A DNA stretch of 50,604 bases from Stramenopiles sp. TOSAG23-6 (Eukaryota). The stretch is from assembly GCA_900128565.1 (NCBI GenBank), contig LT635923.1, positions 1 through 50,604 on the forward strand. The letters run 5' to 3'. The translations under genes and the position numbers were made by a program. Shown one piece after another: positions 4,685 to 50,604 of the stretch (position 1 is its first letter; every line of letters begins with the position of its first letter). The notes under the pieces are model-generated. The model did not search any database and was not told where the DNA came from. It saw only the letters and a program-made list of their open reading frames with translations.

Positions 4685-6144
4685 ATGAGTAGTACTAATC
4701 TTTCTGCTAAAGGCATAGGCAATGAAAGTGGAATTCACCAAGAGCAAAAGGTGGTTGATACTCCTTCAATAAAACGTACCTCAAGTCATGACTCTTCAAT
4801 AAATCGTACCTCAAGTCATGACTCTTTATCTGATACACCAATGTGTAATATACAGTATGATACATCTACAGCTACAGCAATTTGTGAATTATGCGCTGCA
4901 GCAGACAGAGGGAAACAAATCGTTGATAACGTAAATGCTTCGTTTTTATACGGCGACGACCCTGTGCGTTTATCTGAAGGTCGTCGAGCTATCAATTACT
5001 GGAAATCCCGGCTTCAAAAGTACACCGGCCAAATAGCTTCCTCTTTATTACCCTCAATTGATGCAGTAAGTGTGTCAGGATTACCATCGACAGTTCGCGA
5101 GCAAAGACGTGTACTTGTTGAAGTAAGTACACTTTTAGAAGACAGATTGAAAAGGCATTACGATAGTATTGAAGCATTTTGTGAACTATTAGATTCGGAA
5201 ACTAACAAATTTACGTGGGAAAACTTGATGCTTGAAGCTCAAACACGTATCAAGAATCGACATGTACAAGATGAAGAGGAATCATTGGAGTGTTCAACGA
5301 GTTCAATACCTCTGCCACCCATCCCAGCCGCAGCTGAAGTCCCACTAACACCTCATTCCCGAGAACAAGATTCCATGTCGTATAAAAAGACTACTACAAA
5401 TATAAGTGATGTAGTTAGTCCTAGTAAACCTACTACATTAAACATCAATAATTCCAATGCGTTGAAAATCAAGGGTAATGATGCATTACGCAATGGTCAA
5501 CCTCAAGTAGCGATTAACTTTTATACAAAAGCGTTGGAGCTGTCCCCAAATGGTCCTGATTCTCATATTTTCTTTTCAAATAGAGCTGCTGCTCAGATGT
5601 ATCTTTTACATTACAAAAAAGCTATTTTTGATTGTCGTGCGGCACTTCGGTTAAAACCTAGGTTTGCTAAAGCTCATGCACGATTAGGTACAGCTCATTA
5701 CAATTTAAGAGAGTTTCATAATGCGATAACAGCATACGAAAAAGCTTTAGTATATGTCCGTTTTCATTAATTTTTTTCCTAAAGGTTTTTTTTTTCTTGA
5801 AAATTTCATACCTAACGATTTTTTTCACTAAAACATTTTTTTTCATAATACAGGATCCTTCATTGATATCTGCCAGAACTAATCTAAATGCAGCTCGTAA
5901 TCAACTACAACATCAAAATACTCGTACTAAAGGAAATGATAAGACTACAAATAAAATTCCACATGTATCAGATTCTAATTCTTCGTTAAACGATTTTAGA
6001 GACAATCTAAGCGATGCTTTTACCCATACAACACAGAAAGCAGTAAAATGGGGGGAAAATGTATACAATAAAATAATGACTGACGAACCTGACTACACTT
6101 CTAAATCGAATGACGGAAATCATCACTCAAAAAAAATCCTATGA
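4685..6144 (+). CDS. TPR-repeat protein (SGTA/Sgt2-like TPR triplet); exons 4685-5755 and 5854-6144; true C-terminus uncertain
   Basis: LKIKGNDAL..AINFYTKALELSP..IFFSNRAAA..AIFDCRAALRLKPRFAKAHARLG.AHY..AITAYEKALVY|DPS; splicing completes the third TPR and capping helix. Confidence 0.85.
5756..5853 (+). other. Intron-family element A (98 nt, GT...AG), the canonical member that fixes the family register
   Basis: GTCCGTTTTC...TACCTAAC(5809-5816)...TTCATAATACAG; phase 0; removes an in-frame stop. Confidence 0.9.
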
Positions 6145-6565: not shown

Positions 6566-8300
6566 TTATAAAAGTTGCTTCGGAGTCCTTGGAAAACTTG
6601 ATGATACTGTACCATGTTCATTGCGAAATCCTGGAGTTCTTTTAGCTCTACGACGAAAATTCGCAAATCGATGTTTTAAAACTCGAGGGCGCTTTGGAGT
6701 TTTTAATGACGATTGCTCTGAGATATTTCGTGAAGGTGTCACTGTAGTAGTATGTTTCTTTAAATTATCAATTTGTTTGCTATTATTATTTCGTGACATT
6801 TCATCCAATGTCTTTCTGCCATTTATTGATATTTTATTATTTCGTGACATTTCATCCAATGTCTTTCTGCCATTTATTGGTATTTTCTGACAATTTGTAA
6901 ATGGTGGATTATTATTTCGTGACACTTTGTGCAATTTTGGAATAGCACAATTTTTTTTATTATTATTTTCTACTTTTTGAACATTAGAAAAATCTCCAGA
7001 TTTCCTTGAATTACGAAACTGTGAATTTGTAGAAATATTTCTGCTGTTATTCATTGTATTCGTATTGTTTCTATTATTGATTAACTTTCGAGCTCTACAT
7101 GGTGACGGTGTCAATGTTGCATCGCGAACTCGAGATCTTTTCCGTAATAGCGATGTCACTGAATATTGTGAAGGGGTTTTATTTACATTACGATTTGGTG
7201 TTTTATTAAAATGTCTTTGGCTTTTACTAACAGACATTTGACTTGGATTGATGCCTCTGCGAGATACAGATAACAAATTTGACGATTGTCTTTGTACCAT
7301 TTGATGTGGTGATTGTCTTNGTACCATTTGATGTGGTGATTGTCTTTGAAACTCTTGAATATTTCTATTCATTCTACTTGAAGACATCATTCTACGAGAT
7401 GGAGTGAATATGTTTTGTGTTTTCCGGAATGAATTTTTCTCAGAGCCTTGGGAAGATAGTATTGTATCAGATAGAGCTACTGGGGTACGAAATTGAGTAG
7501 AGAAAGAAGCATTATTTGGATTATAATGATTATTTTTTGGTGTTGTTGCTATATATTTCTCTTTCTCTTGAGAGGAGTCTGTGACGTCATTTTTGTTCAT
7601 GTTTATCAAATAGGATTTATTTTTTGGTGTGTTACTCTTATTGAAGAGTTGTTTTATTCTCTTTCGACCACCCAAAGTATTGAGTGGTTGTTGACTTGTA
7701 CATTGTCTGGTGTCACGTTTTGTGAGAAAATATTTCCAAAAAAAATATCGTTAGGTACACAATTACGTACGAAAACAACATCTGAATTTTAAATTTATGA
7801 TAAACACGCACACGTTGCCGTACTGAGAGTGAGGATTTATTAATAGGATGATTCGATACTGAAGCATTTTGAGCTTGCGCTTGGAGAGATTTCGTTTTCG
7901 TCTCGAGTTGTTCCTGATATTTTTTTAACTCTGAATTTTCTTTACTCAATTTGGATTTTTCCTTCTCAAGATGAGCCAAATACAACGCAACCTGCTTTTG
8001 CTGGAACTCGCGGATTTCTAATACACCGGCCTCTATAGTTTCTGGATTACCAAGGACTTTTCGAGAAACCTCATCTGGTACATCTGAAGAACCTAAGTTG
8101 ATGAACATACAAGAAGCAACATCACATACCTGACATCGGTTTTTCTGGTAGTAGTTGGAGTTTAAACACTTTTTGCAAATAAAGTGCTTACAACTTGTTA
8201 CAAATATATTTGAAAGACAAGATATTTCTAAAAAGCAAACGTTGCAACGCTGTGCATAGTTAGAAGTACTTACATGATCTTTGATTTTTCGTACAGTCAT
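6566..8300 (-). CDS. RING + coiled-coil + S/T/N/R-rich tail protein, RNF212/Zip3-like; exons 8300-7812 and 7714-6566
   Basis: CNVCF..IFVTSCKHFICKKCL..CQVC RING, then IREFQQKQ and a coiled coil as in the RNF212/Zip3/HEI10 family; removing 7715-7811 joins VRQR|DTRQC in frame. Confidence 0.65.
7715..7811 (-). other. Intron-family element E (97 nt, GT...GT), left copy
   Basis: Mirror of 42794-42890. Confidence 0.7.
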
Positions 8301-19001: not shown

Positions 19002-20649
19002 ATGATGTTTGGTGCAAGTACACTTGCTATTAGACTTGCATCACGACAAAAGTCACAAATGAGGCAATATAAACGGGAAAGGCCGTACAAGAAGCGTCGA
19101 CCTCGTCCGCAAATGCGCGTGTCTTCAGGAAATCATGTGGAAAAGGGTTTGTCAAAAAAGGGTTTAACAAAACAGGGTTTGAGTTTGACAAAACAGGGTT
19201 TAGTTACTTTAATCAAAAACACGTTTGGTTTTAGTGACTGCGATATAACATATACGAGATATACAAAGATTGTGAATAATGGTGGTTCTATGGAGCTAAA
19301 ATGTTGTTGTATGTGTGTAGGGTTATCGAAAAGTGTAAAGAATGTATTTTCTGTAAAACATTTACAAAACGGGGTTCGAAGGGAAAAAGCTTGGGGAATG
19401 CTGGAGAATCAAGCAGCACTAGCTATGTCCGCAATTATACGAGAAAAAACAGATTTCCGTTTTGCGAAAACGATAACTAAAGAATACTGCCATAAGCATC
19501 AGATATCCGTAAACCAGTCACATAATGCTCAAAATGGTATTTATGAGGTTTGTGTCTCGACTTCGAACTGTTTTGGAAGGGTACATTGTCCTCTGAAACA
19601 CGTTGCTATTGGCGGTTCTGGGTATAAGGAAAAGCTTATAAATTTAGCTTGCGTGAAGATGTTGACCAAATTGATACAAAATGAACCGTATAATCCGAGT
19701 CCATCATTACAGCACTATAAACATTGGAGCTACTACATTATGTTAGCAGTAAAACAAAAAGAAAAAAATGAAAGCATAAGAGGAAATTCAGTTCAGCAAG
19801 TTCGAAAGTCGATAGACATCCCTTTAGAGTATACAAAGAAATCTTTAAAAAAGGTAGATATGCCAACACCAAACGTTCTGACATATATATATAAAGCAAT
19901 AGATAATTGTCAATACCAAGGCGATGCTCCAACTATAGTACGTTTTCATATCAATTTGAATGTAATTTTTTTTTTCGTATGAAATTTTGTACCTAACGAA
20001 TTTTTTTTCGAAATATTTTTTCAGAATCCATGCGGATATTTGGATGTATTGTGAGGAAGAAGCTGTGGACGTCATTCCGTCAAAAAATAAACTTAATAAA
20101 TATATTCGGTATTTGATTTGGAAAGATGTACTCGAAAAGGTTTCATTCCAACATGAAAATAAATTTGGATTACGCAGAACTGCCGGAGTTGATAAATGTG
20201 AAGAAAATAATTCGTTTTTGGACAGAACTGCCGGAGTTGATAAATGTGAAGAAAATAATTCGTTTTTGGATAGCCCTGAGAATAAAAATTGCCGAAGTCA
20301 TGATGATAGTGATATGAGTACAAGCAATGATGATAGTGATGTGAGTACAAGCGATGATGATAGTGATGTGAGTACAAGCGATGATGATGATTTACCATTA
20401 AGACAAAGGAAAACAAGAAATGATTATGGTTTAACATTAAGACAAAAGAAAACAAGAAATGATTATGGTTTAACATCAAGACAAAAGAAAACAAGAAATG
20501 ATTATGATTTACCATCAAGACAAAAGAAAACAAGAAATGATTATGATTTAAGACAAAAGAAAAACAGATCTGACAAGAGTAAGTTACACATTGAAAGATC
20601 ACAACACTTCAGTCGCTTGGATAAAGATCCCAACAATTTTTTAATATAA
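19002..20649 (+). CDS. Putative nucleic-acid-binding protein (dsRBD-like segments, H15/winged-helix-like segment, repeat tail); exons 19002-19937 and 20032-20649
   Basis: Two ORFs joined in frame (APTI|ADIW) by removing 19938-20031; domain calls are weak pattern matches. Confidence 0.6.
19938..20031 (+). other. Intron-family element B (94 nt, GT...AT)
   Basis: GTACGTTTTC...TACCTAAC(19990-19997)...TTCAGAATCCAT; phase 0; the AG at 20023-20024 is out of frame with the nearby GT donors. Confidence 0.72.
20174..20565 (+). repeat. Coding tandem repeats: 48-bp x2 (RTAGVDKCEENNSFLD), 27-bp x3 (STSDDDSDV), ~39-bp x4-5 (RQKKTRNDY)
   Basis: Visible in DNA and translation. Confidence 0.9.
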
Positions 20650-22841: not shown

Positions 22842-25302
22842 CTAAAATTTAAAACCAGCTGTTCGATTTGGATGCATACTACGATTTTTCTTTTCGCCTC
22901 TTCTCTTATTTTTTTCTTTCTTCATACATTTATGCGCAGATCTAGCAGGGTTAATGATCACACCAGCTCTAGTATACACTTCTGGTTTAGTGGCTTCATC
23001 AGTCACTCTGGCTGTGTTAATTTCTCTACCCATCGACCTCCGAAGTGTTGCTTCATATTGTTCCCGAGAGGTAAACGGGTATGGTACACGACTAACTTTA
23101 TATCTTGCAGCTTTCTTGTCTCGTTTTTCTGATATTATGACTAAAGGGAGTTTTGCATCTTTTCGAACCGGATTTGTTTTACTTTTCTTTTTCATTTCAA
23201 TTTTACTACGTTTCGAGTTTTTCTTCGTGACTTTTGATCTTCGCTTTCGTTTTGGTTTTCTCGTAGTAACGCCGACACCAGTCCAATCACCCCACCCTTT
23301 TATTTTATTATCCTCGGCAATTACTTTATTTGATCCTTCAATCTCTTCCTTTTCTCTACGAAATTCTTCCTCTGCCATGGCACCAGCACCAGAAAAAGCA
23401 CGCTGTATGAGTTCCTTCTGTGAAAATCCTTCAGATCCTCCATTTGAAGCATTTGAAGCATTTGAAGCATTTGAAGCACTTTTTTGTGTGCAATTCGTCG
23501 TACGTTGAATTTTATTTTCTTTGATATTTCCAGCATTTTCAGCATCAATTTTCAAAAGTGCTTCTTTGACATTTAATCGTTTTTCCTTGTCATTACGAGA
23601 CTTCTCCTCACGCTCAACGCACCGCCTCTGACGTTTTGATGAATGAGTACTTTGTAACCACGGATTTTCTACCGATTCAATCACACCGCTGGCATCGTCA
23701 GTTTGTCGTGAAAGCTCCAACGGCCGTTTTCTGGTGGTCTTCTTGCCAAGAGGTTTCAAAACATCGCATTTATTTTCCGCCTTTTCTTTGTGATTATTTG
23801 ATTCTTCATTAATGTCACTGACAACACCAGTCTTAGTAGTATTTGTAACATCAGCTTTAGGGTTCGGGTTTTGGCCCCAACCCTTTCCTCCACGCTCACT
23901 TGCTGAAAGTACAACACTCTTTTTTTCTAATTCGGGTAGATGATCCGCCACAGAAATATCGCCCTCAAATTCAAAATTTGGTGTTTCGAATAAGTCTAAC
24001 ATATATTGTGAAAAAATACTTCAAATTTGTTTTTTGTTAGGTACAAAATTTCGTATGAAAAAAAACTAAATTCGAAATTGAAATGAAAACGTACTGGGAA
24101 TGATTTACACTTGTACAATTGGATGTATTTGCTGTGTCAATATTATCATTCATACGAATACGAATTCCATCACTCATCTGGATTTTCTTTAATTGTTGTC
24201 CATCGTTTCCAATAGCGTCAGCAATAAAAGCTTCGGCAGTAGCGTCACGTTTAGCATTTTTAATTGATGTTGATGATGATCCACCAAACGATCTACGAGA
24301 TATATTCTTGGCCTCTTCAAATATTTCCGGTTGTTTTCCTTTATTTATTTCGGAAAATTCAGCGAGAAGATTTTCAGCATTTTTCTTCGCAGCAGAACGT
24401 TGTTTCACCAAAGCTCGTTGCATAAATTTAAGCCCGAATAATCCTTTTTCTGGCATTTTTGTTTTACTATCATTTTCAATCTCGACAAGAATCTTCCGAG
24501 CTTTTTCTTCAAGAATTCGTTGCTGCTTTGGGACATTTTTTCCAGATGCTTCCGTCGAGGTTCCAGTAGGGTTAGGATTGTCTTCTTCTACATCACTATC
24601 ACTATCATCAGACTTCTTTTTACGACCAAGTATGTATTGTGAAAAAAAAAATGTTACGGAAAAAAAACGTTAGGTACAAAATTTTCTATGAAAAACTTAA
24701 AATTCATAATGATGAAAACGAACATTTTTGCGTGAAGCAATTCGCGTTGTCGCAATTCATCAAGAACAGCTTTCCGTGCATCATTACTATTCCCACCCCC
24801 ACGTTTTAACGTCTTCTTCATCCATTTCGAAGTATTTCGATGTTTCAATGTCATTCGAAGCTCTGCTCGTTTACGTGCTTCTTTTTCTTCCATTTCTCGT
24901 GCCATTTCCGGATTTGTTTCCCAGAGCAATTCACGTTCCTTTTCTGTTTTTTTAGCGTCTTGTCTTTTTCGTATTTTACGGAAAAGCTTAGATTTAATTT
25001 TTTTTGTACGCTTTAACTTTTGCTCTTCGTAAAACATAAGAGACCTCATCTTTTGCAACTCACGACGCCTAGATTCGATTTGTTTCGGAGTTAACGAATG
25101 AGCCTCAAAAAGCTCATCAGTCTCATCTTCCATCGCTTTTTTCTCATCGCTCATTCCAGTATGATCTAATATTGCAGCAACTTCACGTTCCATATCCGTA
25201 GTTGGTTCGAATTTCGTTCTTAAGGTTGCTGTAGACAATTTCTGTCTAGGTGCCTCATTCACACTCACAAAAGAAAGATGAGAAGATTGTCGATTTTTTT
25301 GT
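22842..25302 (-). CDS. UTP14: U3 snoRNA-associated protein UTP14, 5'-truncated at the palindrome axis; exons 25302-24724, 24631-24095, 24000-22842, left copy
   Basis: Mirror of 25303-27763. Confidence 0.9.
24001..24094 (-). other. Intron-family element D (94 nt, GT...AT), left copy
   Basis: Mirror of 26511-26604. Confidence 0.7.
24632..24723 (-). other. Intron-family element C (92 nt, GT...AT), left copy
   Basis: Mirror of 25882-25973. Confidence 0.72.
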
Positions 25303-27763
25303 ACAAAAAAATCGACAATCTTCTCATCTTTCTTTTGTGAGTGTGAATGAGGCACCTAGACAGAAATTGTCTACAGCAACCTTAAGAACGAAATTCGAAC
25401 CAACTACGGATATGGAACGTGAAGTTGCTGCAATATTAGATCATACTGGAATGAGCGATGAGAAAAAAGCGATGGAAGATGAGACTGATGAGCTTTTTGA
25501 GGCTCATTCGTTAACTCCGAAACAAATCGAATCTAGGCGTCGTGAGTTGCAAAAGATGAGGTCTCTTATGTTTTACGAAGAGCAAAAGTTAAAGCGTACA
25601 AAAAAAATTAAATCTAAGCTTTTCCGTAAAATACGAAAAAGACAAGACGCTAAAAAAACAGAAAAGGAACGTGAATTGCTCTGGGAAACAAATCCGGAAA
25701 TGGCACGAGAAATGGAAGAAAAAGAAGCACGTAAACGAGCAGAGCTTCGAATGACATTGAAACATCGAAATACTTCGAAATGGATGAAGAAGACGTTAAA
25801 ACGTGGGGGTGGGAATAGTAATGATGCACGGAAAGCTGTTCTTGATGAATTGCGACAACGCGAATTGCTTCACGCAAAAATGTTCGTTTTCATCATTATG
25901 AATTTTAAGTTTTTCATAGAAAATTTTGTACCTAACGTTTTTTTTCCGTAACATTTTTTTTTTCACAATACATACTTGGTCGTAAAAAGAAGTCTGATGA
26001 TAGTGATAGTGATGTAGAAGAAGACAATCCTAACCCTACTGGAACCTCGACGGAAGCATCTGGAAAAAATGTCCCAAAGCAGCAACGAATTCTTGAAGAA
26101 AAAGCTCGGAAGATTCTTGTCGAGATTGAAAATGATAGTAAAACAAAAATGCCAGAAAAAGGATTATTCGGGCTTAAATTTATGCAACGAGCTTTGGTGA
26201 AACAACGTTCTGCTGCGAAGAAAAATGCTGAAAATCTTCTCGCTGAATTTTCCGAAATAAATAAAGGAAAACAACCGGAAATATTTGAAGAGGCCAAGAA
26301 TATATCTCGTAGATCGTTTGGTGGATCATCATCAACATCAATTAAAAATGCTAAACGTGACGCTACTGCCGAAGCTTTTATTGCTGACGCTATTGGAAAC
26401 GATGGACAACAATTAAAGAAAATCCAGATGAGTGATGGAATTCGTATTCGTATGAATGATAATATTGACACAGCAAATACATCCAATTGTACAAGTGTAA
26501 ATCATTCCCAGTACGTTTTCATTTCAATTTCGAATTTAGTTTTTTTTCATACGAAATTTTGTACCTAACAAAAAACAAATTTGAAGTATTTTTTCACAAT
26601 ATATGTTAGACTTATTCGAAACACCAAATTTTGAATTTGAGGGCGATATTTCTGTGGCGGATCATCTACCCGAATTAGAAAAAAAGAGTGTTGTACTTTC
26701 AGCAAGTGAGCGTGGAGGAAAGGGTTGGGGCCAAAACCCGAACCCTAAAGCTGATGTTACAAATACTACTAAGACTGGTGTTGTCAGTGACATTAATGAA
26801 GAATCAAATAATCACAAAGAAAAGGCGGAAAATAAATGCGATGTTTTGAAACCTCTTGGCAAGAAGACCACCAGAAAACGGCCGTTGGAGCTTTCACGAC
26901 AAACTGACGATGCCAGCGGTGTGATTGAATCGGTAGAAAATCCGTGGTTACAAAGTACTCATTCATCAAAACGTCAGAGGCGGTGCGTTGAGCGTGAGGA
27001 GAAGTCTCGTAATGACAAGGAAAAACGATTAAATGTCAAAGAAGCACTTTTGAAAATTGATGCTGAAAATGCTGGAAATATCAAAGAAAATAAAATTCAA
27101 CGTACGACGAATTGCACACAAAAAAGTGCTTCAAATGCTTCAAATGCTTCAAATGCTTCAAATGGAGGATCTGAAGGATTTTCACAGAAGGAACTCATAC
27201 AGCGTGCTTTTTCTGGTGCTGGTGCCATGGCAGAGGAAGAATTTCGTAGAGAAAAGGAAGAGATTGAAGGATCAAATAAAGTAATTGCCGAGGATAATAA
27301 AATAAAAGGGTGGGGTGATTGGACTGGTGTCGGCGTTACTACGAGAAAACCAAAACGAAAGCGAAGATCAAAAGTCACGAAGAAAAACTCGAAACGTAGT
27401 AAAATTGAAATGAAAAAGAAAAGTAAAACAAATCCGGTTCGAAAAGATGCAAAACTCCCTTTAGTCATAATATCAGAAAAACGAGACAAGAAAGCTGCAA
27501 GATATAAAGTTAGTCGTGTACCATACCCGTTTACCTCTCGGGAACAATATGAAGCAACACTTCGGAGGTCGATGGGTAGAGAAATTAACACAGCCAGAGT
27601 GACTGATGAAGCCACTAAACCAGAAGTGTATACTAGAGCTGGTGTGATCATTAACCCTGCTAGATCTGCGCATAAATGTATGAAGAAAGAAAAAAATAAG
27701 AGAAGAGGCGAAAAGAAAAATCGTAGTATGCATCCAAATCGAACAGCTGGTTTTAAATTTTAG
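25303..27763 (+). CDS. UTP14: U3 snoRNA-associated protein UTP14, 5'-truncated; exons 25303-25881, 25974-26510, 26605-27763
   Basis: KNRQSSHLSF, MRSLMFYEEQKLKRTKKIKSK.FRKI, RAELRMTLKHRNTSKW, GLFGLKFMQRA, ENPWL, GWGDWTG, VIISEKRDKK..VPYPFTSREQYE are Utp14 hallmarks. Confidence 0.9.
25882..25973 (+). other. Intron-family element C (92 nt, GT...AT)
   Basis: GTTCGTTTTC...TACCTAAC(25929-25936)...TTCACAATACAT; phase 2; gives ELLHAKI-LGRKKKSDDSDSD; no AG between branch motif and end. Confidence 0.72.
26511..26604 (+). other. Intron-family element D (94 nt, GT...AT)
   Basis: GTACGTTTTC...TACCTAAC(26562-26569)...TTCACAATATAT; phase 2; gives NHSQ-LDLFE in frame. Confidence 0.7.
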
Positions 27764-28099: not shown

Positions 28100-29833
28100 A
28101 TGGCAGACGTTCCTTATTTGCAAGCAAAAGTTCTCCTTAATGAAGAGAGACTACCATCGGCTTGGGTTCCTGACAGAATCTGGGGGTTACTATTTGTGTT
28201 GACCGTGTTGGCAGAAATTGCTTTGACTGTATATGTATTTATATCTGCAAATACGTCAGGAACGTATGCTAGTCGTATAATTAATTGCCCTAATAACACT
28301 TATCTAAAGGAATATCCTATTGAGATGTTCAAACCTAATGCTGACGTTGTACGGGACATTTGTAAATGCATCGACAAAAAGACTACTAGAAGACTGGAAA
28401 AAAAGGAATACTCCTTATTCTCATTTTTCAGGAAAGCTCCTGAAGTGCCTGCTCTGCTCATTGCTGGAGTAGTGGGTGTATCCTTACTTTGGTTGGTATT
28501 GATGAAGTCTTGTGCTACATTTTTCGTCGTCGGAACAGTAATTACGCAAATTGTACTCGGATGTATGTTAAATTCAATCAAAAATATTGCCACTCACTTA
28601 TTTCAATACTCTACACTTTACTAATCTGTCATCTAATTATCTATAAACTACAGCGCAGTCTGTTTTGGAGGTTATCTCTACCATAAGGAACATTATACAT
28701 CAGCTTCTATTGTTTCTGCAATTTCGTTAATTTATTTGGTCTATGTGGTTTGGAGAAGGCAGAAGTTTTTGAATGCTGCTCATTTTCTTGAACAAGCTGT
28801 AGGTGGGATCTTCGCACGTGCGACCATGTTTTTTGTTCTTGTACCCGTACAGATGATTTATCTNGGAATTCTTGCATTACTTGTGAATTTGATGATTTTT
28901 CTTACGCGAAGCGTAAATGTTACATGCAAAGACGGTGTAGCAGGTACTGAAAATAAGTTTACATGGTTGGGTATTATAATAGGCGGACTTCTGATGTGGT
29001 CAGCATTTTATTTAAAACACGCTTCTTTATTTATTACATCTATGTCAGTTGGTACGTGGTGCTTCAATCAAGAGCCTGATCATCTTGCACTTACTTCATT
29101 TGTGCTAGCATTTAGCAAATCCTTACCAGTAATTGCAGTGTCTTCCTGCGTTTGTGCTATATGCGAAATTTTGCGGAGATTTGCCCAAAGTAAGATGGCT
29201 TGGATTTCTCCATTTATTATTCTGAAGCTTCTATGTTGTTGCTTTGCCGATGTAATCGATACGATTTCACGTTTTGTTCTTGTATTCCATGCAATAACAT
29301 CAGAAAGTTTCTGGAACTCTGCAAAATTTTCTTATGCAGTTCTTATGAAACATCTAGAAGATGCATATGTTACTAGCTTTACAGGCAAAATGGTCGTTTG
29401 GTTGGGAAACTATGCTGTCTCTTTTGGTATTGGATTAGCTGCTTGGGCTTGGTGTGATGATCAGCTTGGTCTAAACACATTGGAAAATAATGGGGGAGAC
29501 TGGTCCCATCCCATAATTTTCTATTTGTTTTTCCTGTTGTATATGTATGCGATGAGTATACCAATGTTTACTCTAGTTTGCATGATATTTTTTGGAAACA
29601 CCGAAACAAATGAGTTTGTGAGTATGTTTTCGGGGTTATTCGTTGGTTCTATCGCCAATCTTGTAATGCACTTTGTTGGGGAAATCGTGTTGTGTGCGGT
29701 TGATACTGTTTACGTTTGTTATGCAATTCAAAAGGAAGTCGGTTATCTGCCAGATCAAACGACAGACCAGGGTAAAATTTATTATTTATTAGACGCATCC
29801 GCAGATGAAGGTCCTCAAGATGTAAAAGTGTAG
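28100..29833 (+). CDS. Choline transporter-like (CTL/SLC44) protein; exons 28100-28562 and 28659-29833, right copy
   Basis: Mirror of 20772-22505. Confidence 0.85.
28563..28658 (+). other. GT-AG intron (96 nt), non-family sequence
   Basis: GTATGT donor, TACTAAT (28619-28625), in-frame stop inside; only the second AG (CGCAG, 28658) restores frame: IVLG-F-CFGGYLY. Confidence 0.75.
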
Positions 29834-29955: not shown

Positions 29956-31603
29956 TTATATTAAAAAATTGTTGGGATCTTTATCCAAGCGACTGAAGTG
30001 TTGTGATCTTTCAATGTGTAACTTACTCTTGTCAGATCTGTTTTTCTTTTGTCTTAAATCATAATCATTTCTTGTTTTCTTTTGTCTTGATGGTAAATCA
30101 TAATCATTTCTTGTTTTCTTTTGTCTTGATGTTAAACCATAATCATTTCTTGTTTTCTTTTGTCTTAATGTTAAACCATAATCATTTCTTGTTTTCCTTT
30201 GTCTTAATGGTAAATCATCATCATCGCTTGTACTCACATCACTATCATCATCGCTTGTACTCACATCACTATCATCATTGCTTGTACTCATATCACTATC
30301 ATCATGACTTCGGCAATTTTTATTCTCAGGGCTATCCAAAAACGAATTATTTTCTTCACATTTATCAACTCCGGCAGTTCTGTCCAAAAACGAATTATTT
30401 TCTTCACATTTATCAACTCCGGCAGTTCTGCGTAATCCAAATTTATTTTCATGTTGGAATGAAACCTTTTCGAGTACATCTTTCCAAATCAAATACCGAA
30501 TATATTTATTAAGTTTATTTTTTGACGGAATGACGTCCACAGCTTCTTCCTCACAATACATCCAAATATCCGCATGGATTCTGAAAAAATATTTCGAAAA
30601 AAAATTCGTTAGGTACAAAATTTCATACGAAAAAAAAAATTACATTCAAATTGATATGAAAACGTACTATAGTTGGAGCATCGCCTTGGTATTGACAATT
30701 ATCTATTGCTTTATATATATATGTCAGAACGTTTGGTGTTGGCATATCTACCTTTTTTAAAGATTTCTTTGTATACTCTAAAGGGATGTCTATCGACTTT
30801 CGAACTTGCTGAACTGAATTTCCTCTTATGCTTTCATTTTTTTCTTTTTGTTTTACTGCTAACATAATGTAGTAGCTCCAATGTTTATAGTGCTGTAATG
30901 ATGGACTCGGATTATACGGTTCATTTTGTATCAATTTGGTCAACATCTTCACGCAAGCTAAATTTATAAGCTTTTCCTTATACCCAGAACCGCCAATAGC
31001 AACGTGTTTCAGAGGACAATGTACCCTTCCAAAACAGTTCGAAGTCGAGACACAAACCTCATAAATACCATTTTGAGCATTATGTGACTGGTTTACGGAT
31101 ATCTGATGCTTATGGCAGTATTCTTTAGTTATCGTTTTCGCAAAACGGAAATCTGTTTTTTCTCGTATAATTGCGGACATAGCTAGTGCTGCTTGATTCT
31201 CCAGCATTCCCCAAGCTTTTTCCCTTCGAACCCCGTTTTGTAAATGTTTTACAGAAAATACATTCTTTACACTTTTCGATAACCCTACACACATACAACA
31301 ACATTTTAGCTCCATAGAACCACCATTATTCACAATCTTTGTATATCTCGTATATGTTATATCGCAGTCACTAAAACCAAACGTGTTTTTGATTAAAGTA
31401 ACTAAACCCTGTTTTGTCAAACTCAAACCCTGTTTTGTTAAACCCTTTTTTGACAAACCCTTTTCCACATGATTTCCTGAAGACACGCGCATTTGCGGAC
31501 GAGGTCGACGCTTCTTGTACGGCCTTTCCCGTTTATATTGCCTCATTTGTGACTTTTGTCGTGATGCAAGTCTAATAGCAAGTGTACTTGCACCAAACAT
31601 CAT
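29956..31603 (-). CDS. dsRBD-like/H15-like protein, right copy
   Basis: Mirror of 19002-20649. Confidence 0.6.
30574..30667 (-). other. Intron-family element B, right copy
   Basis: Mirror of 19938-20031. Confidence 0.72.
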
Positions 31604-35287: not shown

Positions 35288-35673
35288 TGTAAAAAGACTC
35301 TTTGTAACTATTTATCTCATTACATATAATATAATTGATGAAAGTTGAAGTAAGGAATATTGTTGTCCCGGTGGTGGTGGTGGTGGTGAGAAGAAGCGAA
35401 GAAGCCTACGTAACCCTAACCCTAATACGACGATTTTTTCGGGCCAATCAATGACATTGTAGGTAGGGTTAGGGTTTAGGGTTAGGATAACACGCGTCAA
35501 ATTTTCTGAGATACCTCGTCGTGACGTCGTCAAGACTTCTACTTGTATAGTTGTACTATTTAATATCTGTGTGTGGTAAACTCACTTTTCGAGTATAGGT
35601 AGACATACAAGCCTAATACATTCCATAAAAGTCAAGCATGTATTTGGTGTAATAACTTTGGCACGTGCGTGTA

Positions 35674-42304: not shown

Positions 42305-44039
42305 ATGACTGTACGAAAAATCAAAGATCATGTAAGTACTTCTAACTATGCACAGCGTTGCAACGTTTGCTTTTTAGAAATATCTTGTCTTTCAAATATA
42401 TTTGTAACAAGTTGTAAGCACTTTATTTGCAAAAAGTGTTTAAACTCCAACTACTACCAGAAAAACCGATGTCAGGTATGTGATGTTGCTTCTTGTATGT
42501 TCATCAACTTAGGTTCTTCAGATGTACCAGATGAGGTTTCTCGAAAAGTCCTTGGTAATCCAGAAACTATAGAGGCCGGTGTATTAGAAATCCGCGAGTT
42601 CCAGCAAAAGCAGGTTGCGTTGTATTTGGCTCATCTTGAGAAGGAAAAATCCAAATTGAGTAAAGAAAATTCAGAGTTAAAAAAATATCAGGAACAACTC
42701 GAGACGAAAACGAAATCTCTCCAAGCGCAAGCTCAAAATGCTTCAGTATCGAATCATCCTATTAATAAATCCTCACTCTCAGTACGGCAACGTGTGCGTG
42801 TTTATCATAAATTTAAAATTCAGATGTTGTTTTCGTACGTAATTGTGTACCTAACGATATTTTTTTTGGAAATATTTTCTCACAAAACGTGACACCAGAC
42901 AATGTACAAGTCAACAACCACTCAATACTTTGGGTGGTCGAAAGAGAATAAAACAACTCTTCAATAAGAGTAACACACCAAAAAATAAATCCTATTTGAT
43001 AAACATGAACAAAAATGACGTCACAGACTCCTCTCAAGAGAAAGAGAAATATATAGCAACAACACCAAAAAATAATCATTATAATCCAAATAATGCTTCT
43101 TTCTCTACTCAATTTCGTACCCCAGTAGCTCTATCTGATACAATACTATCTTCCCAAGGCTCTGAGAAAAATTCATTCCGGAAAACACAAAACATATTCA
43201 CTCCATCTCGTAGAATGATGTCTTCAAGTAGAATGAATAGAAATATTCAAGAGTTTCAAAGACAATCACCACATCAAATGGTACNAAGACAATCACCACA
43301 TCAAATGGTACAAAGACAATCGTCAAATTTGTTATCTGTATCTCGCAGAGGCATCAATCCAAGTCAAATGTCTGTTAGTAAAAGCCAAAGACATTTTAAT
43401 AAAACACCAAATCGTAATGTAAATAAAACCCCTTCACAATATTCAGTGACATCGCTATTACGGAAAAGATCTCGAGTTCGCGATGCAACATTGACACCGT
43501 CACCATGTAGAGCTCGAAAGTTAATCAATAATAGAAACAATACGAATACAATGAATAACAGCAGAAATATTTCTACAAATTCACAGTTTCGTAATTCAAG
43601 GAAATCTGGAGATTTTTCTAATGTTCAAAAAGTAGAAAATAATAATAAAAAAAATTGTGCTATTCCAAAATTGCACAAAGTGTCACGAAATAATAATCCA
43701 CCATTTACAAATTGTCAGAAAATACCAATAAATGGCAGAAAGACATTGGATGAAATGTCACGAAATAATAAAATATCAATAAATGGCAGAAAGACATTGG
43801 ATGAAATGTCACGAAATAATAATAGCAAACAAATTGATAATTTAAAGAAACATACTACTACAGTGACACCTTCACGAAATATCTCAGAGCAATCGTCATT
43901 AAAAACTCCAAAGCGCCCTCGAGTTTTAAAACATCGATTTGCGAATTTTCGTCGTAGAGCTAAAAGAACTCCAGGATTTCGCAATGAACATGGTACAGTA
44001 TCATCAAGTTTTCCAAGGACTCCGAAGCAACTTTTATAA
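42305..44039 (+). CDS. RNF212/Zip3-like RING protein; exons 42305-42793 and 42891-44039, right copy
   Basis: Mirror of 6566-8300. Confidence 0.65.
42794..42890 (+). other. Intron-family element E (97 nt, GT...GT; AACGTG direct repeat spans both junctions)
   Basis: GTGCGTGTTT...TACCTAAC(42848-42855)...CTCACAAAACGT; phase 0; first downstream AG (42897-42898) is out of frame with the nearby GT donors. Confidence 0.7.
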
Positions 44040-44460: not shown

Positions 44461-45920
44461 TCATAGGATTTTTTTTGAGTGATGATTTCCGTCATTCGAT
44501 TTAGAAGTGTAGTCAGGTTCGTCAGTCATTATTTTATTGTATACATTTTCCCCCCATTTTACTGCTTTCTGTGTTGTATGGGTAAAAGCATCGCTTAGAT
44601 TGTCTCTAAAATCGTTTAACGAAGAATTAGAATCTGATACATGTGGAATTTTATTTGTAGTCTTATCATTTCCTTTAGTACGAGTATTTTGATGTTGTAG
44701 TTGATTACGAGCTGCATTTAGATTAGTTCTGGCAGATATCAATGAAGGATCCTGTATTATGAAAAAAAATGTTTTAGTGAAAAAAATCGTTAGGTATGAA
44801 ATTTTCAAGAAAAAAAAAACCTTTAGGAAAAAAATTAATGAAAACGGACATATACTAAAGCTTTTTCGTATGCTGTTATCGCATTATGAAACTCTCTTAA
44901 ATTGTAATGAGCTGTACCTAATCGTGCATGAGCTTTAGCAAACCTAGGTTTTAACCGAAGTGCCGCACGACAATCAAAAATAGCTTTTTTGTAATGTAAA
45001 AGATACATCTGAGCAGCAGCTCTATTTGAAAAGAAAATATGAGAATCAGGACCATTTGGGGACAGCTCCAACGCTTTTGTATAAAAGTTAATCGCTACTT
45101 GAGGTTGACCATTGCGTAATGCATCATTACCCTTGATTTTCAACGCATTGGAATTATTGATGTTTAATGTAGTAGGTTTACTAGGACTAACTACATCACT
45201 TATATTTGTAGTAGTCTTTTTATACGACATGGAATCTTGTTCTCGGGAATGAGGTGTTAGTGGGACTTCAGCTGCGGCTGGGATGGGTGGCAGAGGTATT
45301 GAACTCGTTGAACACTCCAATGATTCCTCTTCATCTTGTACATGTCGATTCTTGATACGTGTTTGAGCTTCAAGCATCAAGTTTTCCCACGTAAATTTGT
45401 TAGTTTCCGAATCTAATAGTTCACAAAATGCTTCAATACTATCGTAATGCCTTTTCAATCTGTCTTCTAAAAGTGTACTTACTTCAACAAGTACACGTCT
45501 TTGCTCGCGAACTGTCGATGGTAATCCTGACACACTTACTGCATCAATTGAGGGTAATAAAGAGGAAGCTATTTGGCCGGTGTACTTTTGAAGCCGGGAT
45601 TTCCAGTAATTGATAGCTCGACGACCTTCAGATAAACGCACAGGGTCGTCGCCGTATAAAAACGAAGCATTTACGTTATCAACGATTTGTTTCCCTCTGT
45701 CTGCTGCAGCGCATAATTCACAAATTGCTGTAGCTGTAGATGTATCATACTGTATATTACACATTGGTGTATCAGATAAAGAGTCATGACTTGAGGTACG
45801 ATTTATTGAAGAGTCATGACTTGAGGTACGTTTTATTGAAGGAGTATCAACCACCTTTTGCTCTTGGTGAATTCCACTTTCATTGCCTATGCCTTTAGCA
45901 GAAAGATTAGTACTACTCAT
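44461..45920 (-). CDS. TPR-repeat protein, right copy
   Basis: Mirror of 4685-6144. Confidence 0.85.
44752..44849 (-). other. Intron-family element A (GT-AG), right copy
   Basis: Mirror of 5756-5853. Confidence 0.9.
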
Positions 45921-47918: not shown

Positions 47919-49047
47919 ATGGATCCTGTTCTGAACAAGATGCTTGCAGAAGCTTCCTTTGAATCATCAACTGTATCGCCATCTCGAAAGCTTATTTATC
48001 AACTTCAAAAGGAAGGTGGTGTAAACACTGCGAAACTTTTAGTCCAAACAGCTGAAGCACTGAAAAAGGCTAATTTAGTGGGAAGCTCTGACTTTACACG
48101 GCGCGAGGCCGAACGTTTGGCTGATCTAACCAGAGATTCAACATTTGAAGCAATTGGTACAATGGAAATGAATGACGATGCAGGTATAGCAGTCACGATG
48201 CAACATCGTTGCGCATGGCTCGGCGCCTATAGTTTTGCCTCGATCCAGTGGGCCGAGTCAAGTTTCTTAGCCTCAAATGGTTCTATTGATGGTGGCAGAG
48301 CTGCACTGAGAGCAATTGATTTAGCGTTACTTCGAGGTGGACCGCATTGGAATTTAATGGCTAAAGATATTATATCAAAGGCATCCAAAGCAGTTCAGTT
48401 AAACAACCCTCATGATACTCAAAACCCTAACCCTACAAACGAAACGATTGATAGTTGTCCAGAAATTCACTCATCTAGTTGTAATGTAAAACGTAAAGTG
48501 CTGAAAGAGTCAACACCATTATGGGTTCGTGGGAGTAAATCCAAGTATGTTTCACCAATAAGTCGTGTCCCTTTTAGAACGAATGACGGAATTCAGAAAA
48601 TGACAATTTCTGAGTTTAAAGAAAATTTTATGAAGTCAACCACTCCTGTTATAATCACAGGTAGTTTGTCTGAGTGGCCAGCGCTCAAAACTGGCAGTAA
48701 ACATTTATGGTCTGATGCATCATATCTAAAGAAAGTAGCTGGTGATAGAATTGTCCCTGTAGAAGTATGTAATAAAGCTGATAACACACAAACATATTTA
48801 TCTAATAGCTGGGCTCAAAAAGTGATGACTCTGTCCGACTTTATTACAAACCATGTAATTCCAAGTGAAAGTTGTGGACGTTTTTCAAAATGTTCAATTG
48901 ATAATACTCAATGTGCCTATCTAGCTCAGCATCCTTTATTTGATCAAATACCATTTTTAAAAGAAGATATTATACAGCCATCTCTTTGTAGTGCTCTGTT
49001 ACCAACTGACACTGGATCGGATGCTACTACTGTTCATGTGAATGCAT
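47919..49047 (+). CDS. KDM8: JMJD5/KDM8-like N-terminal exon, right copy
   Basis: Mirror of 1558-2686. Confidence 0.8.
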
Positions 49048-49140
49048 GTATGTTTTATTTTTTTTCAAATTCGAAGTTTTTTTTTCGTACGAAATTTTGT
49101 ACCTAACGAAAAATATTTCAAATATTTTTCCAAAATACAT
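49048..49140 (+). other. Intron-family element F (93 nt, GT...AT)
   Basis: GTATGTTTTA...TTTCGTACGAAA..TACCTAAC(49100-49107)...CCAAAATACAT; donor is phase 1 but the downstream long ORF needs phase 0. Confidence 0.65.
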
Positions 49141-50516
49141 ACGGTTTTGAAACGAAAACAAAAACAAAGAATAAGAGATCTAGTTCCTTTGTTACGCTTT
49201 TCTATGCCAATGCAACCAACAAAAAAAACCCTAACCCTAATGAAAGGAGAAAAAAACGAAATGCCAGAATATTTTAGTGTTTTAATTCCTTCGAGATTAT
49301 CACCAAATACTACACATACTATACCATATAATGATTACAACAAACTCATTAAAAGTAATACAAAATATAGTATAGATTCGATGATGTCGCATTCAGTACC
49401 TATTCTTCAATCACAAATAATATCAGGACCGATGTTTAAATTATCAGCTAATGGTAGAGATTACGAACGATGTATCATTGAAATGCATGTAAACGTAAAT
49501 AAAAATTCAGAAAAAAATAAAAAATCAGAAAATCTAAGTGATCTAGATCATAAAATAAGTATACGCTTCAAGTGGTTTGGATCCGGGACAAATCTTCGGC
49601 CTAACCCTAACCCTAACCCTAATTCCATGTCTCATAGTCCTCCCTCAGAGAAAAAAGATGTTGAAACGTCTTCACATGAACAAATATTGAATAAAGGCTT
49701 TCTCTGGAAACGATCTTGGCGATATGGGATGCTTACTTGGGAACGACGTTTTTGTCAACTTCGCTTTCGGGCTCATGCGTCTTTAACGAAATCTACAGTA
49801 TACTGTGGAGGAATATTTTCGTATGCCAAAACTCAAGTTGATCTTCGTTTATTAGAAAAATCCGGTTCTATAAAAAATGTTTATTTTGCAGATGGTAGTG
49901 GAGGAACTAGTGTTTTATCATGCCAAGATGAAGAAAAAAAGAAAGGCACATTTGTGCTGAATATTGATGGTAAGAAATTGACTCTCCGAGCAAAAACAGT
50001 CGGTGAGGCGCGTTCATGGATCAATTCTATTAATCATATGATATTAGTCTTAACTCAAAGTAATACGAAAAATAACGTAAATAATTATAAAGATGATGAT
50101 GTTACAGACAGTAGTAATCATTATAAACCTCAAATGATTCGTGTACGTTTTCGCAATTTCAAAATTTCAATTTTTTTTTCGTACGAAATTTTGTACCTAA
50201 CAAATTTTAGTTTTTTTTTCGAAATATTTTTTCACAATACATGGTTCTTCTCGTGATTTGGCCGGAGATGGAAGTATTCATACGTGGCACTGTCTTCATA
50301 TAAATCCACCATTGGTAGAAAATTTAAGTTCGGCATTTGAATCTTCTAGTGTAGATCATTCTATAGACTATATAGACAAAGACTCTAAATATTCTTCAAG
50401 TCAAGTATCAGCACCAAGCCTATTCAATCCTAGTGTAATTGGTAGTTTTGATATCTCAGTTTTTAATAAATCAGTTCGAACAAATTCAGCATCTTCTGAT
50501 GTGGAAGTCCTTACAT
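49141..50516 (+). CDS. PH-domain protein, internal exons 49141-50142 and 50243-50516, right copy
   Basis: Mirror of 89-1464. Confidence 0.75.
50143..50242 (+). other. Intron-family element G (100 nt, GT...AT)
   Basis: GTACGTTTTC...TACCTAAC(50194-50201)...TTCACAATACAT; phase 0; joins QMIR|GSSRD in frame. Confidence 0.7.
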
Positions 50517-50604
50517 GTATGTTTTATTTTTTTTTCAAATTCGAATTTATTTTTTTATAAAAATTTTGTACCTAACAAATTTTAGTTTTTTTTTGAAATA
50601 TTTT
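50517..50604 (+). other. Intron-family element H (partial; window ends inside it)
   Basis: GTATGTTTTA...TACCTAAC(50569-50576)...GAAATATTTT. Confidence 0.7.

Follow-up and report, generated by a model that had tools for sequence, protein, structure and literature searches.

A sense-oriented family of short intron-like elements, most with AT 3' ends, in a stramenopile-like contig

Results

Gene content and intron-like elements of the window

The window analysed here, a 50,604-nt stretch of contig LT635923.1 from Stramenopiles sp. TOSAG23-6, contains eight distinct related elements (A to H, 88-100 nt) that lie in six genes within 25.3 kb of unique sequence, resemble spliceosomal introns and mostly end in AT rather than AG. 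The whole window is identical to its own reverse complement and forms a perfect palindrome centred at 25302/25303; the unique sequence amounts to 25,302 nt, and each feature is present twice, mirrored. The GC content is 32-40%. The genes recognized by Pfam are eukaryotic and comprise UTP14, a choline-transporter-like gene, DnaJ+DUF1977, an EAF-like gene, and LRR, RING-finger and TPR genes, in addition to EAP30/Vps22, complex-I LYR, cupin-like and PH-domain genes.

A first-pass annotation, made from the letters of the sequence, had described eight related elements. All eight are located at the coordinates that it gave, and they are eight different copies, none of which is a mirror duplicate of another; A and B, however, had been placed in the mirror arm, and their right-arm copies are at 44752-44849(-) and 30574-30667(-). 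The elements and the gene that carries two of them are as follows.

5756..5853 (mirror 44752-44849(-)), + strand: element A, 98 nt, GT...AG, in the TPR gene, phase 0, in frame
19938..20031 (mirror 30574-30667(-)), + strand: element B, 94 nt, GT...AT, in an orphan gene
25304..27763, + strand: UTP14 gene, three exons matching Pfam Utp14 profile positions 106-299, 311-426 and 407-727, 5' part missing
25882..25973, + strand: element C, 92 nt, GT...AT, in UTP14
26511..26604, + strand: element D, 94 nt, GT...AT, in UTP14; an alternative canonical acceptor ends at 26586
42794..42890, + strand: element E, 97 nt, GT...GT, in the RING-finger gene
49048..49140, + strand: element F, 93 nt, GT...AT, after an exon of the cupin (JmjC-like) gene
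50143..50242, + strand: element G, 100 nt, GT...AT, in the PH-domain gene; an internal AG lies 10 nt from the branch A
50517..50604, + strand: element H, first 88 nt, cut by the window end, in the same PH-domain gene as G

As the first-pass annotation had proposed, UTP14 is interrupted twice, by C and D, and the Pfam profile covers all three exons. The centre of the palindrome lies inside this gene, and the first in-frame residue after the centre already corresponds to position 106 of the Utp14 profile, so that the 5' part is missing. As this part of the gene is lost at the centre, the palindrome is most likely an inverted chimera of amplification or assembly rather than biology. Four single N bases occur, at the mirrored positions 7320, 21741, 28864 and 43285, one of which falls in the part of the RING-finger gene that encodes a short tandem peptide repeat.

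The closest relatives of the UTP14 fragment are two proteins of 57% and 53% identity, followed by oomycetes at approximately 50% and, further away, by Blastocystis, diatoms and brown algae. The best named relatives thus bear out the earlier description of the genome as stramenopile-like.

Signals and boundaries of the element family

A 25-nt degenerate core pattern matches the window 12 times (six copies and their mirrors) against 0 matches in 100 shuffles. A profile built from the eight copies (nhmmer) finds exactly those eight in the unique half, with E-values from 3e-19 to 9e-8, and no other match at E<=10. The copies are 61-83% identical in pairwise comparison, and the best-conserved blocks are the 5' GTNYGT, the branch-site-like TACCTAAC, and a T-run followed by CACAATACAT. 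GTNYGT, whose +5 and +6 positions are always G and T, opens all eight copies, and TACCTAAC, a branch site of the CTRAY type, precedes the T-run in 8/8 copies. The distance from the branch A to the element end is 34-42 nt, the shortest being that of F (34 nt).

The consensus and the 3' ends agree with those first reported: CAG in A, CAT in B, C, F and G, TAT in D and CGT in E, with H cut off by the window end. At the homologous position, AG is therefore present in A only, GT in E, and AT in B, C, D, F and G, which makes five of the seven visible ends AT. The AG of A falls exactly where the other copies carry their terminal T, and C, E and F contain no AG at all from the branch site to the element end. 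In an alignment that includes 25-nt flanks, the similarity is bounded by the initial GT and the final ...ACAT, and the flanks are otherwise unrelated; the only recurrences outside the element are a T at -1 (six of eight) and a purine at +1 (seven of seven). All eight copies are sense to their host genes, with none intergenic or antisense in the 25.3 kb of unique sequence. Equal chances of the two orientations would give this result with a probability of 0.004, and the sense-only orientation is as predicted by selection for splicing.

The 5' and branch-site motifs bear on whether the elements could be minor-spliceosome (U12-type) introns or introns in an AT-AC register, which we regard as very improbable. 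GT-AT is among the commonest non-canonical termini of U12-type introns, for which a transposon origin has been proposed (10.1101/2020.10.12.336362). Additionally, the upstream exon ends in AT in C, F and H, the last visible on its 5' side, so that an AT...AC register would give the same mRNA; in C the register is ambiguous, with GT-AT, TG-CA and AT-AC yielding identical mRNA. However, the G at +5 and the T at +6 in 8/8 copies stand against the U12 consensus [G/A]TATCCTT (10.1101/2020.10.12.336362), and no TCCTTRAC-like branch site is found within approximately 26 nt of the 3' end, CTAAC being 34-42 nt away. A U12-type identity was rejected because neither the 5' site nor the branch site fits the U12 consensus. 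A uniform AT-AC register was also rejected, as it is impossible in B, D, E and G and creates a stop codon in A; only a register that starts with GT fits all copies. The U12-type introns of Physarum resemble the present elements in their GT-AT termini, in the proposed transposon origin and in a 3' site that is set largely by the distance from the branch site, although GT-AT is a minority there among U12-type introns, others being AT-AA and the like (10.1101/2020.10.12.336362). They differ in that the 5' and branch motifs of the present elements are not U12-like, and 34-42 nt from branch to end is long for the minor spliceosome.

The element ends carry uneven traces of insertion. The upstream flank repeats the last bases of the element in C (AT), F (CAT) and E (AACGT, up to 5 nt). 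In G the repeat shrinks to a single nt, in A 1 of 2 nt is shared, and B and D have none. This pattern would fit a DNA transposon whose target duplication is short and prefers AT, or else the direct insertion of an intron unit.

Weakly inverted ends (ATGTAT.../...ATACAT) occur only in copies preceded by AT, and they count in favour of removal without a spliceosome, whether through RNA structure, as in euglenid nonconventional introns, or through DNA excision like that of ciliate internal eliminated sequences. Euglenid "intermediate" introns also pair a GT start with a non-canonical end. However, folding reveals no stable structure shared by the copies (z-scores of +0.3 to -2.4), and in A, D and G no stem connects the ends; B and D also lack end complementarity, and the conserved GTNYGT, CTAAC and T-run are spliceosomal signals. 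Unlike euglenid-type introns, whose ends are brought together by a stable secondary structure and which lack a polypyrimidine tract, the elements show no shared end-joining stem and contain a long T-run. Additionally, we know of no programmed DNA elimination in stramenopiles. Removal of this kind would be surprising, and we give it very little weight. An Rfam search of the arm returned nothing credible (one long non-coding RNA match, E 0.54), and no small nuclear RNA (snRNA) was found in the window.

Reading frames across the elements

When the elements are cut out at their ends, open frames of 96-391 codons come together in all six testable cases (A, B, C, D, E and G); in B, the two frames have 319 and 205 codons. 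The lengths of these testable elements are 92-100 nt and fall into two residue classes modulo 3. The restoration of the frame at six junctions had been taken in the first-pass annotation as a sign of splicing at the element ends. The frames do join in 6/6 cases, but this is expected for any insert: because any insertion into an open reading frame restores the frame once the unit is removed, frame restoration cannot locate the cut and is not evidence for a splice site.

Element F does not join two long frames. The cupin (JmjC-like) domain at 47919-49140 ends at profile position 118 of 252, exactly at F, and the cupin frame runs 45 codons past F to a stop. The sequence after F (49141-49275) resembles the upstream region of the next gene. 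The locus may represent a truncated gene or an assembly misjoin of two repeat copies.

These observations raise the question of whether the elements stay in the mRNA, as gene-disrupting miniature inverted-repeat transposable elements (MITEs), as pseudogene or broken-allele copies, or partly as products of repeat misassembly in an amplified assembly of single-cell type. The perfect palindrome, which cuts UTP14 at approximately position 106, shows that assembly or amplification artefacts are present; the frame after F closes at 45 codons, leaving the cupin domain incomplete; and the CAG of B is out of frame. Nevertheless, we consider retention improbable. All copies are sense and none is intergenic, conservation is strongest in the splice signals while identity between copies is otherwise only 61-83%, and long open frames are kept on both sides of six copies. 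UTP14, which is essential in yeast, carries two copies. Additionally, independent seawater metagenome runs share 49-79% of the sampled words of the region.

Homology at the junctions

Only two junctions can be aligned, one in a TPR repeat (A) and one in UTP14 (C); for B, E and G, protein-database searches found no relatives to align. In A, the upstream exon ends at position 28 of the 34 positions of the TPR_1 profile, and the residues after the AG start with DPS, which we take to fit the end of the TPR motif. Aligning UTP14 relatives across its two junctions, as the first-pass annotation had suggested, was informative for C, which leans to the element end, but not for D, where the surrounding region is not alignable.

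In C, the element-end model aligns without gaps through the junction to the three closest relatives; the window reads ..HAKI/LGRKK.. (slash, junction), compared with ..HQKIMGGKK.. in the relative P0001 and ..HQKIMSRKN.. in P0002. Six splice models were scored at this junction over identical genomic limits. The element-end model scores 372, 364 and 344 against P0001, P0002 and P0009, and the best AG model scores 348, 365 and 326. The closest relatives thus appear to favour the AT-end model modestly.

Searches for further copies, transcripts and reads

The 25-nt family pattern has 0 matches in genome contigs and 0 in viral contigs. Two matches in metagenome contigs (L001 and L002) were rejected as chance, since they share the pattern but no other family feature. 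Near-length protein searches returned nothing for UTP14 exon 2 or for the upstream exon of the B host gene (19002-19937), which also matches no Pfam family. A longer-length search with UTP14 exon 1 returned relatives only, the best at 57% identity. The PH-domain gene exon at 49240-50142, a long orphan open reading frame, has 0 matches at E<=0.001 in an exhaustive search of 1.84 billion representatives.

Two metatranscriptome runs share fractions of 0.23 and 0.15 of the sampled words of the region, values that are no evidence of expression or splicing. Independent seawater DNA runs share 0.49-0.79 of the sampled words, which is not evidence of habitat.

Placement of the 3' splice site

To compare the element ends with canonical acceptors, AG dinucleotides after the branch A were given offsets relative to the element end, with the family donor taken as offset 0.

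Element A: AG at 0; in frame with donor 0 at 0
Element B: AG at -7, +24 and beyond; in frame with donor 0 at +24, the CAG at -7 being out of frame
Element C: AG at +16, +19, +30 and beyond; in frame with donor 0 at +30, the third AG
Element D: AG at -18, +5 and +37; in frame with donor 0 at -18, the first AG (AAG, 18 nt from the branch A)
Element E: AG at +8, +20 and +54; in frame with donor 0 at +54, the third AG
Element G: AG at -32, +25 and +32; none in frame with donor 0

When the family donor is paired with the nearest AG past the branch point, the frame is kept in A (0) and D (-18) alone and lost in B (-7), C (+16), E (+8) and G (-32, then +25), so that canonical rules would break four genes, including UTP14. 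For non-AG splicing, by comparison, one rule covers all copies with the conserved donor of the family, which makes it the most economical reading of the sequence.

The alternative that deserves most attention is that these are introners, mobile families of introns, which are spliced canonically, each copy using a nearby in-frame GT or GC donor and an AG at the cost of a few added or deleted codons. The AT end would then be merely the end of the transposon. Each of the six testable copies offers such in-frame pairs, and a second GT at +4, present in most copies, opens another phase. Nearly all U2-type splicing uses a terminal AG. Introners that co-opt their 3' site are also known, and in Aureococcus one family lengthens the transcript by 12 nt (PMC9860276). 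However, this explanation requires a separate rule for each copy. C and G would need weak donors (GTTTTC and GTGTAC) in preference to the conserved GTNYGT 2-4 nt away, the strong CAG in B would have to be skipped, and the distances to the first downstream AG in C, E and G (16, 8 and 25 nt) are not multiples of 3 for the family donor. Additionally, P0001, the closest relative at C, favours the AT-end model by 24 points. A fixed rule of a +4 donor with the first AG was tried and rejected, as it is in frame only for C and G. Canonical splicing by such individual solutions is in our view rather unlikely.

A number of observations weigh against splicing at the element ends. Frame joining, as noted above, defines the inserted unit GT...AT and not the splice site, and each of the six testable copies has some in-frame, stop-free GT/GC-AG pair. 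The cleanest is that of D, where the family donor and the AG at -18 give a 76-nt GT-AG intron ending at 26586 that keeps 18 extra nt in the mRNA. E has a plausible GC-AG alternative, in frame, with a donor at +2 (GCGTGT) and the AG at +8. In B, the same strong donor at 0 is in frame with the AG at +24. C and G have alternatives with weak donors, at +4 (GTTTTC) with the AG at +16 in C, and at -2 (GTGTAC) or +4 with the AG at +25 in G. The first-pass annotation had anticipated these poorer-donor alternatives for C and G. It had assigned a poorer donor to the alternative of D as well, overlooking the in-frame AG at -18 with the family donor, and its statement that B and E lack an in-frame alternative with the first downstream AG does not hold: B has the AG at +24, though an internal CAG is met first, and E has its GC donor with the AG at +8.

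A spliceosome that uses the AG of A would also be expected to use TTTTTTCAG of B (-7) and the AAG of D (-18), and because of this expectation a model with AU ends must explain why these AGs are skipped. At C, the margin in favour of the element end is small, with one AG model scoring 1 point better against P0002, and a recent insertion would leave the flank relative-like even if it is now intronic. The protein-database searches found no protein from transcripts of this organism. Finally, the sample consists of seven visible 3' ends on one contig, from an assembly with a palindrome artefact.

The acceptor-like site of B has a further peculiarity. At 20018-20031 (mirror 30574-30587), a CAG stands in place of the family CAC, 7 nt before the element end, and forms a strong-looking acceptor that is out of frame and lies ahead of the 205-codon open frame.

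Discussion

What is present at the locus is a family of elements with its own signals, a sense-only orientation, a defined inserted unit and a lack of AG at most of its ends. The elements are best explained as an introner, in which short spliceosomal introns form a mobile family akin to transposons, here spread into coding exons. Judged on the DNA, the data support related intron-like units with U2-type signals (GTNYGT, CTAAC and a T-run) in a stramenopile-like genome, whereas we infer splicing itself, the cut at the element ends and the U2-type machinery. The first-pass annotation had interpreted the family as U2-type introns spliced with a relaxed requirement for the terminal G. The U2-type signals and the absence of AG at the homologous end of most copies uphold this interpretation in part, but its argument from frame joining cannot place the cut.

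In the mechanism that we propose for this marine stramenopile-like eukaryote, the introner would have spread into coding exons, with every copy bringing its own U2-type 5' splice site, the branch site TACCTAAC and a U-rich tract. The inserted unit extends from GT to ...ACAT and ends 34-42 nt past the branch A, and this unit is precisely what the major spliceosome would remove. In the second step, cleavage would follow AU (GU in E) rather than AG, with the requirement for a terminal G relaxed. A would have acquired or kept an AG at the homologous position, and D may use its internal in-frame AG. Splicing at the AU or GU ends of most copies seems to us evenly balanced between true and false. The broader proposal, that the major spliceosome of a marine stramenopile does without the terminal G and that the cut position is set by the element and not by an AG, is more tentative and falls slightly short of that balance.

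The family has clear likenesses to the introners of Micromonas, Aureococcus, Chrysochromulina, dinoflagellates and fungi, in which near-identical short introns occur at unrelated positions in unrelated genes. In both cases the similarity ends at the intron ends, the elements carry their own splice signals, all copies are sense, and the host is marine or aquatic (PMC9860276; PMC11282704). A major difference is that the described families give GT/GC-AG introns in which the missing site comes from target-site duplication, whereas AT is found here in five of seven visible ends and no consistent target-site duplication provides an AG. Introner surveys start from annotated introns and drop families with unfamiliar splice sites unless they are supported by RNA (PMC12130899), so that a family like A to H would be missed.

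Transposon-derived introns with non-canonical ends have been described in Fritillaria, Amoebophrya, some dinoflagellates and euglenids (PMC11282704), and those of Fritillaria and Amoebophrya that depart from GT/AG are processed by modified spliceosomes (PMC11282704; PMC13326754). The MITE-derived introns of Fritillaria borealis are comparable to the present elements in being transposon-derived and species-specific and in having non-AG 3' ends (AG-AC and AG-AT) (PMC11282704), and a modified major spliceosome, in which U2AF is duplicated and divergent, removes them (PMC11282704; PMC13326754). Here, by contrast, the final base is the sole departure from fully canonical signals (5' GT, branch site and T-run), and the host is a protist and not a tunicate. 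Amoebophrya, like the present organism a marine protist, also has repeated intronic elements with short direct repeats at their boundaries, and more than 60% of its introns are non-canonical (PMC11282704). However, both ends vary widely there, terminal inverted repeats are present and the U1 snRNA is apparently absent, whereas the 5' site of the present family is a textbook target of U1 and U6. The literature search found no GT-AT-dominated U2-type family, and none for stramenopiles, with supplementary intron tables outside its range; the main text of PMC5778133 contains nothing on splice sites.

Few signals in eukaryotic gene expression are as invariant as the terminal AG. To our knowledge, the only lineages that break the GT-AG rule at scale are Fritillaria, Amoebophrya, euglenids and diplonemids, each with transposon-derived introns. 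If the proposed mechanism is true, the present family would be the first population of U2-type introns dominated by GU-AU ends and a natural system for the study of 3' splice-site choice in the second step. A family that keeps all canonical signals except the last base would isolate the requirement for the 3' splice site and would point to alterations in factors of the second step or of the U2AF type. Introner surveys based on GT-AG would also be shown to miss whole families, and gene prediction with an enforced AG would give wrong models for most genes with introns in this organism and in its relatives in ocean metagenomes. If cryptic AG sites are used instead, the family would be an ordinary introner that co-opts its 3' site imprecisely.

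Other features of the window

One further intron candidate was identified, which is the sole plausible intron outside the family in the window; the family accounts for eight of the nine intron candidates.

28563..28658, + strand: intron outside the family, 96 nt, GTATGT...TACTAAT...CAGCGCAG, in the choline-transporter-like gene

This intron suggests that the organism also has AG-ended introns. Its 3' end contains two AGs 5 nt apart (CAGCGCAG); the strong GTATGT donor puts only the second in frame, and a weak GT donor at +4 puts the first in frame.

A 499-residue open reading frame at 31810-33306 matches no Pfam family. Additionally, when up to one mismatch is allowed, the window contains 26 occurrences of a telomere-like motif, (CCCTAA)2-3 (13 sites and their mirrors), compared with an expectation of 0.17. 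The sites are at 26028, 26737, 35414, 35464-35487(-), 36120, 36270, 41983, 48425, 49229 and 49599-49621, and, when these positions are read against the open reading frames, they are sense to the nearest gene. Some lie directly 5' of start codons, where they are reminiscent of the plant telo-box, and others are in frame within open reading frames and encode NPNP runs, in the UTP14, EAF-like, cupin and PH genes.

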